From: an uncultured Christensenella sp.
GTDB taxonomy: Bacteria; Bacillota; Clostridia; Christensenellales; CAG-138
DNA: 64,000 nt
Reading direction: 5' to 3'
Assembly: GCA_964383635.1 (NCBI GenBank)
Contig: CAYLIG010000001.1
Coordinates: 91,866 to 155,865, forward strand
Part shown: positions 52,148-60,111 of the stretch, in pieces
Numbering within the stretch: the stretch's first letter is position 1
How the letters are laid out: each line of letters begins with the position of its first letter
The notes under the pieces: model-generated
What the model was told of the DNA's origin: nothing
Database searches by the model: none
What the model saw: the letters and a program-made list of their open reading frames with translations, nothing else
Program-made: the position numbers and the translations under genes

Positions 52148-54100
52148 TTAACCTTTATATGTGTTGAATCTTACGAGAGCTTGTTCGGTATTCGCGCTAT
52201 TTTGATAATGGGTTACTATAATTAGTGAAATTGTTTCCTTCGTTAGGTGTGCAGTGTGATCCCACGGATCAATTTTATCTAGAAACTCACCAAGGTAAGG
52301 GAGATCGGAAGGAGATAGATTTTCAGGGATAAATGCAGGCATACCATTGTAAACGCCAAATTCATACGCTGCATCGACTATCATAGCTGGTGCTGCTAGC
52401 AGCTTCAGGCCGAGACCGACCTGTTCACCGATCATATCCCAAACTGTCGTGCGTTTCACTTCTATTGAAACTTCAGAGGGGAGTTTATTTCCTAAATGAA
52501 CTTCGATGTCGTCGCCGTCACATGAAATAGTAACGTGGTACTGTCCTCCTTCATAATAATAACCACCTATTTGGATGTTTTTTTCTTCAACAATATCCAT
52601 GCCATTCCAAATCCGCGGGCGGATCGGAGAATGAGTTTCGTCTGCGATGATCGCTTGCGCGGAATCTTGATCGGAGAGAAGATCGCGCATCAACTTCTCG
52701 AAATTTCTGGGGTTCGACAATTTTTTTACGCCTTTTTCATTAATCTGATCGACCAATGTTTGTAATTGAGATATCGATAGTTCGTTAATCAGACTTTTAA
52801 ACTGTGATTCTGGAAACTGTAGCAACTTAGCTTCGTCGATGATACTGGCAAGCTGTCGCCGGTACATTGAGTCGTTTTTATTGTATGCAGAGGTGAGGTA
52901 ATCCAGATAATGTTGTTTCGCTGCTTCACCGCTAAACTCAATCTTGCCGGATTCAACTTCACTGATTAAAGTATCCAGTTTCGACATGTCTGAAAAAAAT
53001 TCATCGGCTGTATTAAAAACGTCCGAATCACGATGAAGCAAGCCGTCGATTGAAGCATCGCCGGTTAAGAGTTCCCCGATCTGACCGCGTACTTCGTTCG
53101 CATCTTCTCGCTTTCCGCTATATCCCCGCACACCAAACCCAAATGAGGCAAGGAGCGTATCCTCTTTTTCATTTAGCATAGTTAAAAATGTATTTGCTGT
53201 TCTTGGGGTGGCAAAAAGCGGTAGATCATGATTCTTCACACCGATTCGTGCGCTGGCAATCTTGAATAATTCATCCGCAATTTCAGTTGTTTGTGATGAA
53301 GATAATCCATAAGCGAATCTGTTTTTCTGGATATCTTGAATAATAGCAATCGTTTCAAGCGATGTACTCGCGTTAAGAAGCTTCATTTGTGCTTCCTTAC
53401 TTTGGCCGCTGCTTTGCAGTTTTCGCTGTTGCTGCCTGGCGGATAAATCATCCCAGCCGGTTAGGTCAAAGTCTTCTGGAAGGTCTGCAACGAGTTCAGC
53501 AATGCCTTGATATTCGTCTGGAATGGGAGGAATAGCGGGCTGAAGCTGAAATGGATAGAACAGCGAATCTGGCTTTTTCGCGCTTTTCCCCGAAGGCAGG
53601 GTGGATCCGGTCTTGTCCTGTTTTAAAACCGGAGGAGAAACAAGACCTGCATTCAGATCGGATTTTCCGTTATGTACTTGTAGCAAAAGAGTTTTTATCA
53701 CTTTCGGGTCGACAGACAGAAGAGATAAGGACAGGGGCGAAGACGATGTGGCTTTACCAGATTGCTTGATAGTAGAGGCGGAGGGAGTTATTCCAGCAGG
53801 ATTGTTGCTGTAATCACTATTAAGTGCGGCAAATAATTTCTCAGCCGCAACGATATCCACTTTGAATGGCAGAAATAGAAGATCGTTATGGTTAGTTTTG
53901 GCAGTTGTTTTATTTCCGACAGGTGGCGTTGCCAGCGAAGAGGCGCTTCCGGTGCCGGTAGTTGCGTTTTGCTTAGACTTGTCCGCAATGATCGGAGCAT
54001 GAGTAAGATCAAAATGTAACGGCGAAGCACCAGTCTGGTTCGGAGGGACGGCTTTTTTGGACGATTGAATTGGAAGCCGCAGCGTCTTTAACACGAGCAT
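52148..54100 (-). CDS. 650-aa orphan protein (AT-rich island 2)
   Basis: Long uninterrupted ORF in an AT-rich context. An AAAGGAG RBS lies 6 nt before the ATG at 54100. The N-terminal 230 or so aa are Ser/Thr/Pro/Lys/Gln-rich. I saw no signal peptide, TM segment or known motif. Confidence 0.65.
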   Translation of the reverse strand: MLVLKTLRLPIQSSKKAVPPNQTGASPLHFDLTHAPIIADKSKQNATTGTGSASSLATPPVGNKTTAKTNHNDLLFLPFKVDIVAAEKLFAALNSDYSNNPAGITPSASTIKQSGKATSSSPLSLSLLSVDPKVIKTLLLQVHNGKSDLNAGLVSPPVLKQDKTGSTLPSGKSAKKPDSLFYPFQLQPAIPPIPDEYQGIAELVADLPEDFDLTGWDDLSARQQQRKLQSSGQSKEAQMKLLNASTSLETIAIIQDIQKNRFAYGLSSSQTTEIADELFKIASARIGVKNHDLPLFATPRTANTFLTMLNEKEDTLLASFGFGVRGYSGKREDANEVRGQIGELLTGDASIDGLLHRDSDVFNTADEFFSDMSKLDTLISEVESGKIEFSGEAAKQHYLDYLTSAYNKNDSMYRRQLASIIDEAKLLQFPESQFKSLINELSISQLQTLVDQINEKGVKKLSNPRNFEKLMRDLLSDQDSAQAIIADETHSPIRPRIWNGMDIVEEKNIQIGGYYYEGGQYHVTISCDGDDIEVHLGNKLPSEVSIEVKRTTVWDMIGEQVGLGLKLLAAPAMIVDAAYEFGVYNGMPAFIPENLSPSDLPYLGEFLDKIDPWDHTAHLTKETISLIIVTHYQNSANTEQALVRFNTYKG

Positions 54101-57535: not shown

Positions 57536-57628
57536 GCGGCGCGGCGGCGGTCGCGGGAACGGCATTGGAAAGACGCGGCGCAAAGGACGAACAGGCAGGG
57601 AACATGCCTGCGAAGGGAGACGGAGTAT

Positions 57629-58732
57629 TTGGCCTTGATATGGACGCTACTCAACGGACTGATCGCCATCATGGCGGCGGTGCTCGCGCTCGGCGCGGCG
57701 CTGCTGCTGCTGCTGCACCTGACCCGCAGGGCGGACAGCCGCAGGCTGACGAGGATGCACGAGCAGCTGCTCTGCTTTGTCTCCGGCGAGGCAAAAGCCT
57801 GCCAGATGAAAAGCCGCATCTATGAGATGGTGGAGCCCGGCGGCGCGATCGACGCGCTCTGTGATATCCGCGGGATCCGCTCGCCGCGCGGGCTGATCGT
57901 CATCGCCGAAACGGCGGGCGAGCTTTCCGGAGCGGCGCTGGAAAAGCTCCGAAAAGAAGCGGCGGGCGAATGGTACGGCGCCTATCTTCGGGAGGTGCTG
58001 GACGGCGTGGACGAGGAGGAGATGGCGCTGGTCATCCGGCTCATCGGCGCGCTCAAGCTCAAGAGCTACACGGCGGACGTGGTCACGCAGATCTACTGCT
58101 GCCGCACGACGGCGCAGATGCAGCACGTCGGCATGCTGACGCTCTGTATGCTTGGCGCGGAGCGGGACATCATCGCCCTCTGCCGCGACCATACGATTGC
58201 TTCGCTGCTGTCATTCCGCACGCTGGAAGAAATCTTTTCGATCTATACCGGCGATTTGAAAAAGCTCTGCCGGAAACTGATCACGACCGCGTCCGATCCT
58301 TATATCCGGCGCACGTGCATCAAGACCATCGGCGAAAAACGATATGAAGACCTCGGCGATCTCATACTGCCGCACTTGTTAAACGGGCACATCAACACCC
58401 GCATCGATGCGGCGCGCGCGCTTGGGCAGATTCGCTTTGCGGAGGCGCTTGCGCCAATCGCTGCGAACGCGGAGGACCCGCGCTGGGAAATGCGCGCGGT
58501 CGTCGCCACGGCGCTCGGCTCTTTTGGAGCGGAGGAAAACATGGAGACGCTGATCAAACTGCTCTGCGACAAGGAATGGTGGGTGCGCTACCGCGCGGCG
58601 GAGTCGCTTGCGCAGATAGGTGATACCGAGAAGCTGCTCCGTCTCGTGGACTGCACACACGACCGCTTTGCGGGTGAAATGATGCGCTTTGCGCTCGATC
58701 AGGCGGCGCTCAGGAGAGGGGAGGCGGCGTAG
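57629..58732 (+). CDS. membrane-anchored HEAT-repeat (PBS-lyase HEAT-like) protein
   Basis: N-terminal TM LIAIMAAVLALGAALLLLLHL. C-terminal repeats DPYIRRTCIKTIGE, NTRIDAARALGQI, RWEMRAVVATALGSFG and EWWVRYRAAESLAQIG. TTG start uncertain. Confidence 0.75.
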   Translation: MALIWTLLNGLIAIMAAVLALGAALLLLLHLTRRADSRRLTRMHEQLLCFVSGEAKACQMKSRIYEMVEPGGAIDALCDIRGIRSPRGLIVIAETAGELSGAALEKLRKEAAGEWYGAYLREVLDGVDEEEMALVIRLIGALKLKSYTADVVTQIYCCRTTAQMQHVGMLTLCMLGAERDIIALCRDHTIASLLSFRTLEEIFSIYTGDLKKLCRKLITTASDPYIRRTCIKTIGEKRYEDLGDLILPHLLNGHINTRIDAARALGQIRFAEALAPIAANAEDPRWEMRAVVATALGSFGAEENMETLIKLLCDKEWWVRYRAAESLAQIGDTEKLLRLVDCTHDRFAGEMMRFALDQAALRRGEAA

Positions 58733-58733
58733 A

Positions 58734-60050
58734 ATGCAAATACCGGAAATTGTGACGACGATTCTGCGGGTTTCGTGCTGGCTGTTTGCCGCGTTGCTGT
58801 TCTTTGGCGGGGTGTTTCGGCTGCTTGCGCTTGCGGCGTCCTCGTCGAAGGTGCGCAGATACGCGCATTCGCTTCGCTCCGTGGATTACCGGCGTTTTCA
58901 GGACTCCGAGCATATCATGCCGGTTTCTCTGGTTCTGCCCGCGACGCAGGAGACGGAGTCCCTCAAAGACGTTGTGGAAAATCTGCTTTCGCTTGAGTTT
59001 CGGCAATATGAACTCATCGTCGTTGCCGACAGCCGAAGCGAAAAGAGCTGGGCGAGCCTCTGTGAACCGTATCATCTGCTGCCGTTTCAGCAGCCGTATA
59101 AGAAAACGCTCAAATCCGGCGAAATCGACGGGATCTACCGCTCGGCGAAGGACGTCCGGCTCGTGGTGCTGGATCAGCGCGGCGGCTCGCGCGCGGCGGC
59201 GCTCAACGCGGGCGTCAACGTTTCGTCCTACCCGATCGTTGCGGCGGCATATCCGAACCAGCGGCTGACGAAAAACGCGCTGCTCAAGGCGGTATATGCG
59301 TTTGTCGGCGATTCCGCCTGCGTGTTCATCGGCGCGTATCCGCGCATTGGCGAACTGGAAGAAGGCCGAGAGCAAAAGAGGACATCCGCACTGGGTCACT
59401 ATCAGGCCATCGAACGGCTGCGGCTTCTGTATACGCATCCGATTGCGCACCGGAATCTGGGCGTATATCTGCCCGCGCAGGCGGCGTTTGCCGTGTTTCT
59501 CAAAAGCGCGGTACTCGAATGCGGCGGTTTTTCCGCGGAGTCGACGGCGGAACAGGCGGATCTGCTGCTTCGCATGCATGCGCGCTGCCGCCGCGAAAAG
59601 CGGGCGTACAGCGTGCGCCTGCTGAAGGACGCCGTCTGCTTCGAGAAAGCGAAAAAAACCATGCGCGCGGTGTCCGCGGACAGGGGACGCGCACAGCGGG
59701 CGATGAATAAAACCCTTCGAAGAAACAGACATCTGCATATGCCGCACTCCGGAATTCCTTATACCCGCCTTGCGGAAACCGGCTGGCCGCTGATCCAACT
59801 GATCGGATTTATCGTCGTGCTCGGTGCGGCGGTAATCGGCGCGGTGCCATACTGGTTTCTTGCTTCCTGCCTGCTGCTTGGCGCGCTGATCGGCGCGCTG
59901 CAGTCCGCCGGGGCGGTGCTGCTGGAGGAGAACGCGTTCCGCCTTGGAACGGACACGGCGCTGCTGCTGCGCAGCTATAGCCTTGCTGTGGCGGAGAACT
60001 TCGGCTACCGCCAGCGCGTCGCGCTCGCGCGGCTGTTTGTCCGCCGCTGA
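58734..60050 (+). CDS. membrane glycosyltransferase family 2-like protein, catalytic motifs apparently degenerate
   Basis: The ATG lies 2 nt after the HEAT gene stop. GT2 fold markers VSLVLPATQE, ELIVVADSRS and GGSRAAALNAGV are present, with 1 N-terminal and 2 C-terminal TM helices. The positions of DxD, TED and QxxRW read AYP, AEQ and QRAMN in my by-eye alignment. Confidence 0.7.
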   Translation: MQIPEIVTTILRVSCWLFAALLFFGGVFRLLALAASSSKVRRYAHSLRSVDYRRFQDSEHIMPVSLVLPATQETESLKDVVENLLSLEFRQYELIVVADSRSEKSWASLCEPYHLLPFQQPYKKTLKSGEIDGIYRSAKDVRLVVLDQRGGSRAAALNAGVNVSSYPIVAAAYPNQRLTKNALLKAVYAFVGDSACVFIGAYPRIGELEEGREQKRTSALGHYQAIERLRLLYTHPIAHRNLGVYLPAQAAFAVFLKSAVLECGGFSAESTAEQADLLLRMHARCRREKRAYSVRLLKDAVCFEKAKKTMRAVSADRGRAQRAMNKTLRRNRHLHMPHSGIPYTRLAETGWPLIQLIGFIVVLGAAVIGAVPYWFLASCLLLGALIGALQSAGAVLLEENAFRLGTDTALLLRSYSLAVAENFGYRQRVALARLFVRR

Positions 60051-60081: not shown

Positions 60082-60111
60082 GGCCGCCGGCTGATCTCCG
60101 GCGGCCTTTTT
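60082..60111 (+). terminator. rho-independent terminator
   Basis: GGCCGCCGG-ctgatct-CCGGCGGCC-TTTTTAT. Confidence 0.85.

Follow-up and report, generated by a model that had tools for sequence, protein, structure and literature searches.

The window studied here, a stretch of 64,000 nucleotides from an uncultured Christensenella species, contains two adjacent genes, A and B, which encode a membrane-anchored HEAT-repeat protein and a membrane protein with the fold of the family 2 glycosyltransferases (GT2). Gene A (57629-58732, + strand) is an open reading frame (ORF) with a TTG start that specifies an alpha-solenoid protein of 367 amino acids (aa); gene B (58734-60050, +) is an ORF with an ATG start that specifies a protein of 438 aa. 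Judging from its sequence, protein B is very probably a pseudo-enzyme, that is, a catalytically degenerate protein in which the fold of a processive synthase is kept and the donor and acceptor sites, the catalytic base and the gating tail are gone.

Catalytic motifs and fold of protein B

The homologues of protein B fall into two groups: approximately 85 clusters that are 52-97% identical to it, and a second set that is 36-39% identical and has strong GT2 domain matches. The alignment of the two groups is free of gaps around the motifs. As a reference we use 61 intact members from many phyla, and we compare them with the 13 full-length members of the degenerate clade. The intact members read PAYNE, NDGS, GGKADALNAG, DADS, ISGAFG, GEDMEL, CWTQ and QR(K/R)RW; at the matching blocks, protein B reads PATQE, ADSR, GSRAAALNAG, YPNQ, AQAAFA, AEQADL, CFEK and DRGRA. 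The intact relatives thereby carry the D, DxD, G/TED and QxxRW motifs of the processive GT2 synthases, and they match BcsA motif for motif: DDG, DAD, TED and QRGRW are in register when an intact homologue is aligned to BcsA (4HG6).

The former DxD site of protein B is Y173-P174-N175 (TAT CCG AAC, 59250-59258, +), placed by ungapped alignment to the D-A-D of the 61 intact members. A preliminary description of this DNA, made by eye, had read the site as A-Y-P; the motif is indeed lost, but the reading was one residue off. Within the clade the first position is Y in 11/13 members, the second is P in 13/13, and the third is D, Q, N or R (D in 7/13). The former G/TED site is A272-E273-Q274 (GCG GAA CAG, 59547-59555, +), exactly as had been proposed, and it corresponds, via the intact homologue, to the T-E-D of BcsA. 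The Asp that serves as catalytic base is lost, and position 274 varies within the clade (Q, A, T, S and others). The former QxxRW site, aligned to the QR(K/R)RW of the intact members, is D316-R317-G318-R319-A320 (59679-59693, +), and its Q and W positions likewise vary within the clade. The Q-R-A-M-N previously assigned to this motif lies five residues away, at 321-325, so that here again the loss was correctly recognised and the placement was not. A search for intact DxD, TED or QxxRW motifs displaced from these sites, by alignment to Pfam models, to the intact homologues and to BcsA 4HG6, found none.

The remaining motifs are eroded as well. The first Asp, that of NDGS, is retained in the window protein (A98-D99-S100-R101), where the flanking N, G and S are gone; in 8/13 clade members the residue is Asn. 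Protein B retains neither the PxYNE motif nor the conserved Lys nor the ISGAFG acceptor loop. If we call a position family-invariant when it is conserved in at least 93% of the 61 intact members, then 52 of the 89 such positions have been lost or vary among the degenerate members, among them N72, N98/G100/S101, K153, D155, D173/D175, S249-G250-A251-G253, D274, W303-T304 and Q316/R317/R319/W320. Other positions have become newly conserved in the clade: Y233, F266 and L296 in all 13 members, like P174, and R228 in 12/13, in addition to Y173.

The end of the protein is altered, too. The stop codon of B (60048-60050, +) falls where the intact relatives continue for at least 17 residues with the motif W-G..(K)R(K).F. 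The 13 degenerate members all extend 0-1 residue past this point, and 60/61 intact members have the tail of at least 17 residues with the motif. This WG..R tail resembles, by analogy, the WGTR gating loop of the hyaluronan synthases (HAS) and chitin synthases (Chs); in the WGTRG motif of the Chlorella-virus enzyme (CvHAS), the Trp and the Gly are essential (PMC11750622). The gating-loop motif, whether WGTR as in HAS and Chs or FxVTxK as in BcsA, has no counterpart in protein B or in the 13 clade members, all of which end before the tail.

What survives is the architecture. Protein B has an N-terminal transmembrane (TM) helix at residues ~6-35 (58749-58838, +; by hydropathy, with an AlphaFold2 (AF2) helix at 3-49), followed by a cytoplasmic GT-A-fold domain at residues ~63-304 (58920-59645, +), which is delimited by the AF2 pattern of strands and helices, by Foldseek and by alignment to intact GT2 homologues. 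A predicted interface helix (residues 310-330 in the AF2 model), on which the former QxxRW site lies, leads to a C-terminal TM hairpin at residues 353-371 and 379-397 (59790-59924, +; by hydropathy, with AF2 helices at 341-368 and 373-402). The model has a predicted local distance difference test (pLDDT) score of 88 and a predicted TM-score (pTM) of 0.86, and its top Foldseek match is the Chlorella-virus hyaluronan synthase (E 3e-11, TM-score 0.64-0.67), with BcsA, Chs1 and plant CesA also matched. The linkage of the GT-A fold to the TM helices via an interface helix, a feature of processive GT2 enzymes, is present in the model. Hydropathy, the AF2 model and the Foldseek matches to HAS and BcsA thus agree with the arrangement proposed in the preliminary description, namely one TM helix, a GT-A domain and two further TM helices.

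Protein B scores below the threshold of every GT2 model in Pfam (PF13632, 21.9 versus 27 bits; PF13641, 19.4 versus 27; PF00535, 19.0 versus 23.3). Its best match in NCBIfam, PgaC_IcaA (TIGR03937), scores 44 bits (cut-off 422), and the intact relatives, at 151-160 bits, are also below that cut-off. Compared with the known processive synthases (CvHAS/XlHAS1, BcsA, chitin synthase, NodC and PgaC/IcaA), protein B shares the TM-flanked GT-A domain and the interface helix. It differs from them in that DxD, the catalytic Asp, QxxRW, the conserved Lys and the WG..R tail are absent and in that it falls below every curated cut-off; moreover, it has only three TM helices, and its partner is a TM-HEAT protein rather than BcsB, PgaD/IcaD or a PilZ domain. 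The features of a poly-N-acetylglucosamine (PNAG) synthase of the PgaCD/IcaAD type are likewise missing, since there is no deacetylase among the barnase, barstar and RluB neighbours and the partner is the 367-aa HEAT protein.

The HEAT partner and the intact cassette

Protein A has a single TM helix at residues 11-29 (57659-57715, +; hydropathy 2.94, AF2 helix 2-34). Because five K/R residues occur among the 21 residues that follow this helix, the bulk of the protein is predicted to be cytoplasmic; that is, the short N-terminus is outside and the HEAT domain inside. The AF2 model (pLDDT 91) is an alpha-solenoid, and its secondary structure delimits a HEAT-like solenoid of ~9 helical hairpins at residues 86-362 (57884-58714, +). 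The Pfam models HEAT_2 (5.8e-22; 78.2 bits versus a cut-off of 27.7), HEAT (1.3e-10; 40.9 versus 23.5) and HEAT_PBS (3.6e-7; 30.5 versus 20.9) all match above their cut-offs, with the repeats located at residues 226-345. The partner had been described as a protein with one TM helix and at least four HEAT/PBS-lyase-type repeats, and this description holds. Foldseek matches protein A to alphaRep/PBS-HEAT designs, the PP2A A subunit and CpcE/F. We also considered a role in anti-phage defence and rejected it: PADLOC returned only a weak, generic HEAT-ARM match for protein A (19.6 bits), and none for protein B or for the lipoprotein described below.

The association of the two genes is very general. 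In a locus scan with one genome per species, at least 80 related loci were listed (at least 600 matched stretches). Of the 80 loci listed, 78 have a HEAT gene as the immediate upstream neighbour of the GT2 gene, in the same orientation; the other two run into a contig end, which leaves 78/78 among those that can be evaluated. The co-occurrence of HEAT and GT2 genes is far beyond chance. The coupling of a dead GT2 to a HEAT partner, as originally suggested, is therefore upheld by this co-occurrence together with the processive-synthase fold, the loss of the motifs, the sub-threshold GT2 scores and the purifying selection reported below.

Loci with intact GT2 genes occur in Christensenellaceae, Oscillospiraceae, Lachnospiraceae, Clostridium, Paenibacillus, Peribacillus and Alkalibacterium, and further in Nitrospinaceae, Bacteroidota, Acidobacteriota, Chloroflexota, Treponema and Proteobacteria. 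In 37 of the intact loci a third gene stands just upstream of the HEAT gene (e.g. L013:2550-4745, +). It encodes a protein of ~730 aa with a lipoprotein-type signal peptide, and it is absent from every degenerate locus. This lipoprotein has more than 3800 homologues; it has no sequence match in Pfam, NCBIfam or the Protein Data Bank (PDB), even when a profile of 29 sequences is used. NCBI often labels it 'family 2 glycosyl transferase', a label that is a probable misannotation because no GT2 domain is detectable. It does contain conserved NEP and AExGIP motifs, which we take to be reminiscent of hydrolases/glycosidases of clan GH-A.

Several natural fusions join the parts of this cassette. The protein P0380 combines HEAT, GT2 and TPR domains. 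In several genomes the lipoprotein is fused to the TM-HEAT protein, as in P0326 (1111 aa, L088:4001-7336), where a GT2 gene of the intact type follows with a 4-nt overlap. At the level of sequence, these fusions support the view that the HEAT/GT2 cassette is a physical unit. From the HEAT-GT2 and lipoprotein-HEAT fusions, together with the gene order, the ancestral machine appears to have consisted of a lipoprotein domain outside the cell, a TM helix, a HEAT solenoid inside and a GT2 synthase. Among relatives of the GT2 family we also observe fusions to TPR repeats, to a FecR domain, or to a second cellulose-synthase-like GT2 plus PilZ (P0372, P0381 and P0380, and, for the last type, P0477), which points to large modular variation around the synthase core.

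Genes for receivers, receiver-GGDEF proteins, receiver-HD-GYP proteins and PAS kinases recur beside intact loci (e.g. L046:3391-4860, L051:4403-4810 and L014:3-869), and riboswitches of the cyclic di-GMP (c-di-GMP)-I class lie just downstream of the intact GT2 gene in two loci (L053:7659-7745, 85.8 bits; L027:7590-7676, 75.6 bits). Together, these riboswitches and neighbours suggest that the intact system is under c-di-GMP or two-component control. We found no paper and no Pfam or NCBIfam model that describes the intact cassette, in a literature that largely omits subscription journals, so that an earlier description is possible; within the same scope, we found none for its dead derivatives.

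The window pair can be compared directly with this cassette of lipoprotein, TM-HEAT and GT2. Protein B is a full-length homologue of the intact GT2 (36-39% identity, E ~1e-85), and protein A, likewise homologous over its full length, is 48-59% identical to the HEAT proteins of intact loci, compared with 70-85% for those of degenerate loci. The two genes stand in the same order and are joined just as tightly. The window pair differs in that the catalytic motifs and the C-terminal tail have disappeared and in that it has neither a lipoprotein gene nor a receiver, GGDEF or HD-GYP neighbour. Neither an intact GT2 copy nor a lipoprotein gene is found within the 64-kb window.

Duplication, decay and genomic neighbourhood

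The degenerate loci (the window, L001-L012, L037 and L044) all come from metagenome-assembled genomes (MAGs) of Christensenellaceae-like Clostridia. In neighbour-joining (NJ) trees of the GT2 and of the HEAT proteins, they form a monophyletic clade that stands beside the intact Christensenellaceae clade, with the partly decayed loci L030 and L026 as its successive sisters. Since this monophyly is found for both proteins, the sequences indicate that the two genes of the window pair were duplicated together. At least 7 of the 14 assemblies that contain the dead pair also have an intact copy (OY762962, OY776633, DATMYE01, JAAYUE01, DLGD01, PGZM01 and JAEWYV01).

In one Christensenellaceae MAG, OY762290 (a 3.67-Mb 'chromosome'), a diverged syntenic block occurs twice, at 3.66 Mb (L084) and at 1.05 Mb (L085). 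The doubled block includes the genes for the uracil-DNA glycosylase (UDG), ATP-binding cassette (ABC), barnase, barstar, HEAT, pseudo-GT2 and RluB proteins, together with further genes, and it points either to a large segmental duplication or to a chimeric assembly that mixes two strains. We considered whether the second HEAT copy in OY762290 belongs to an intact-type locus and rejected this, as that copy belongs to the repeat of the entire block just described.

The ratio of nonsynonymous to synonymous substitution rates (dN/dS) of the dead GT2 is 0.24 in comparison with a 97%-identical relative, 0.27 with a 75%-identical one, and 0.14-0.20 within the clade; among intact copies it is 0.02-0.09. 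Therefore, the constraint on the dead GT2 is relaxed several-fold, yet it is clearly present. The relative rates of the two partners are also reversed. In intact loci the GT2 is the more conserved protein (median identity 0.90, versus 0.70 for HEAT; higher in 78/78 pairs), whereas in degenerate loci it is the HEAT protein (0.72, versus 0.55 for GT2; higher in 55/55 pairs). That is, the constraint on the HEAT partner is unchanged, and the enzyme has lost the share of its constraint that derived from catalysis.

Decay of this kind is not confined to the clade of the window. An exhaustive search of 1.84 billion representatives at 50% identity produced 1856 matches, among which the dead clade of the Christensenellaceae amounts to a single representative. 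One or more canonical motifs are missing from 33 of the 150 best representatives. We inspected 17 of these 33 by eye: none of them has DxD, and in most the catalytic Asp, QxxRW and the WG tail are missing as well. Four decayed representatives could be placed in their genomic context, and in each of the four a HEAT gene is adjacent. In L094 and L089 the HEAT gene precedes the pseudo-GT2 gene and overlaps it; in L093 the two genes are convergent. In L090 (3374-6428) a single-domain response regulator, a HEAT protein and a pseudo-GT2 (P0378) are encoded in this order with 4-nt overlaps, and the motifs of P0378 have changed from DxD to ESG, from TED to AEE and from QxxRW to SRLRR. The operon in L090 hints that the HEAT protein could couple a phosphorylated receiver to the GT2-fold protein. 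The NJ tree is compatible either with several independent losses or with a few old decayed clades.

We also observe partly decayed intermediates, at L026:5992-7380 and L030:5998-7374 and in the proteins P0085, P0113 and P0114. The protein of L026 keeps NDGS and CEDMEL but no longer has DxD, the Lys or the Trp of QxxRW; that of L030 keeps the Trp of QxxRW and has lost NDGS, DxD and the Asp of TED. The loss of DxD may have come first, because DxD alone is missing in all decayed lineages.

Returning to the window, the TAG stop codon of gene A (58730-58732) and the ATG of gene B (58734) are separated by 1 nt, and because of this small gap the two genes are likely to be translationally coupled. Each gene is preceded by a Shine-Dalgarno-like sequence: AAGGGAG at 57613-57619 (+), 9 nt before the TTG of gene A, and GGGGAGG at 58718-58724 (+), within the 3' end of gene A and 9 nt before the ATG of gene B. 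A hairpin that resembles an intrinsic terminator, followed by a T-run (60082-60111, +; a 9-bp, all-GC stem at 60082-60106 with a 7-nt loop, then TTTTT), closes the operon. The sequence scan finds no terminator-like site between A and B or directly upstream of A. Both the 1-nt spacing and the shared terminator had been read correctly in the preliminary description. The TTG start of gene A is backed by the N-termini of homologues, which align with residues 1-3 of the window protein. The NCBI call of the HEAT protein (P0121, 353 aa) begins 14 codons after the TTG at 57629 and would truncate the TM helix (57629-57670 omitted); this public start is probably wrong, because the longer N-terminus is conserved in the homologous sequences.

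Upstream of the pair are genes for a UDG-family protein, an ABC exporter, a barnase-type ribonuclease and a barstar; downstream are an RluB-type pseudouridine synthase gene and genes of the oxaloacetate-decarboxylase type. This neighbourhood is kept in related genomes. The ribonuclease gene (PF00545; 56652-57224, +), whose product has an N-terminal hydrophobic segment, overlaps the barstar gene (PF01337; 57221-57535, +) by 4 nt, and both are directly 5' of the HEAT gene. The barnase, barstar, A and B genes may be co-transcribed, because no terminator was found between the barnase/barstar genes and gene A and because the barnase-barstar-HEAT synteny is conserved throughout the degenerate clade. 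Elsewhere in the window, a 650-aa ORF (52148-54100, - strand) has a Ser/Thr/Pro-rich, low-complexity N-terminal half and no Pfam match, and a search of the 64 kb with Rfam detects no RNA element.

Possible roles of the dead pair

We propose that proteins A and B would form a membrane complex that is descended from a sugar-polymer synthase and that would no longer make a polymer. The cytoplasmic HEAT solenoid would bind either the cytoplasmic GT-A domain or the juxtamembrane helix of protein B, an interaction that we infer from the adjacency of the genes, their translational coupling and the natural fusions. The best-conserved block common to the dead and the intact clades is the juxtamembrane RSLRxxDYRRFxDSEH (B residues 41-60), and this segment is a candidate for the contact with the HEAT protein. 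The complex would act non-catalytically, as a regulatory or scaffolding paralogue of an active lipoprotein-HEAT-GT2 synthase whose genes lie elsewhere in the genome; possible ways would be to titrate or recruit factors common to both systems, or to enter into mixed assemblies.

We propose this role because it has precedents among other glycosyltransferases. COSMC (C1GALT1C1) is a non-catalytic GT-A paralogue of family GT31 that has lost DxD and xED and serves as a scaffold or chaperone for the active T-synthase (PMC7185993), and IRX9, a GT43 protein of plant xylan synthesis, works without glycosyltransferase activity (PMC4132061). The window pair is like COSMC in its loss of DxD and xED, in its retained fold, in being under purifying selection and in the presence of an active paralogue in at least 7/14 assemblies. 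COSMC and IRX9 differ from it in that they are eukaryotic, belong to other GT families, are not synthases of the membrane-channel type and have no HEAT partner; moreover, the chaperone or scaffold role is demonstrated for them and inferred for the window pair. Within bacteria, EpsE of Bacillus subtilis is a GT2 glycosyltransferase that doubles as a flagellar clutch; it is soluble and still catalytically active. The likeness lies in a bacterial GT2-fold protein with a role independent of its catalytic site, whereas nothing here points to flagella or connects EpsE with HEAT proteins.

Taken loosely, as a non-catalytic complex with some regulatory or scaffolding role, this is the reading to which we lean, by a modest measure. 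The more specific proposal that the dead pair regulates the intact synthase is drawn by analogy, and we advance it only tentatively. Several points weigh against both. The case for inactivity and for interaction is built from sequence, models and genomic context, and some GT-A enzymes do work without DxD, as has been noted for GT14 (PMC7185993). The dead copy keeps a HEAT partner of its own, which fits an independent complex equally well. The conserved neighbours of the dead pair give no functional hint. The remaining 7 of the 14 assemblies have no intact copy among the 80 loci listed, which settles neither its presence nor its absence there. Finally, the NJ trees are a crude tool, and the decayed lineages may group as they do partly because of long-branch attraction.

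A regulator or scaffold has a nearly equal rival in an independent, neofunctionalised complex, with a function unrelated to the intact synthase: for example, a sensor or receptor for nucleotide sugars, glycans or lipids, or a HEAT anchor that recruits proteins. Such a complex, which we consider somewhat improbable in itself, would account for the fact that the dead GT2 has a dedicated HEAT partner in an operon with its own terminator, and the newly conserved positions Y173, P174, R228, Y233, F266 and L296 suggest remodelling rather than pure drift. The receiver/HEAT/pseudo-GT2 operon of L090 hints at a signalling role. The seven assemblies without a listed intact copy also speak for an independent complex, with the reservation that the 80 loci do not settle its absence. 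However, we found no ligand, partner or informative neighbourhood for such a complex, and the positions of the acceptor site and the catalytic base are variable, so that the old pocket is not obviously kept.

Two further explanations are unlikely. Protein B could still be an active glycosyltransferase that uses non-canonical residues, either independently of metal or with another donor or acceptor. Its GT-A fold, the ALNAG loop, E273, the D99 of NDGS and, in 7/13 clade members, the second Asp of DxD are retained, and the GT-A families that dispense with DxD (PMC7185993) offer a parallel. Nevertheless, position 274 and the Q and W of QxxRW vary freely in the clade with no conserved substitute, and the Lys, the Asn of YNE and the ISGAFG acceptor loop were lost together. 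The WG..R tail, which resembles a gating-loop motif essential in CvHAS (PMC11750622), is deleted in 13/13 members, and dN/dS is 4-6 times that of the intact paralogues. We regard residual catalysis as improbable for these reasons. It is more improbable still that the pair is a functionless relic of the duplication on its way to becoming a pseudogene. The lost motifs, the raised evolutionary rate and the absence of the third gene of the cassette would be expected of such a relic, but full-length ORFs are kept in ~85 clusters at 52-97% identity, dN/dS at 0.14-0.27 is far under 1, the HEAT partner evolves at its normal rate, and the tight gene junction and the synteny are retained clade-wide.

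Looking beyond the window, it is conceivable, although on balance we doubt it, that the HEAT-GT2 module has a second function that is independent of catalysis and has been kept repeatedly after catalysis died. A candidate for this function is a membrane switch that reads phosphorylated receivers or c-di-GMP-linked signals, in which case there would be a class of bacterial 'pseudo-synthases' that regulate or replace the three-part exopolysaccharide machine.

Dead paralogues that serve as scaffolds or regulators are well known among the kinases and for a few eukaryotic glycosyltransferases. Among the bacterial membrane synthases of the cellulose, hyaluronan and PNAG type, we found no description of a dead paralogue in the literature searched, with its small share of subscription journals. 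The present case is a clean one, in that intact and dead copies occur in the same genomes, the partner is retained, and the order of evolutionary rates, enzyme against partner, is inverted between the two copies. It also exposes a widespread and apparently undescribed synthase cassette of lipoprotein, TM-HEAT and GT2, in which regulation may act through the HEAT subunit. Should the dead pair modulate the live synthase, it would represent a new layer of control over matrix production in abundant anaerobes, the Christensenellaceae and their relatives.

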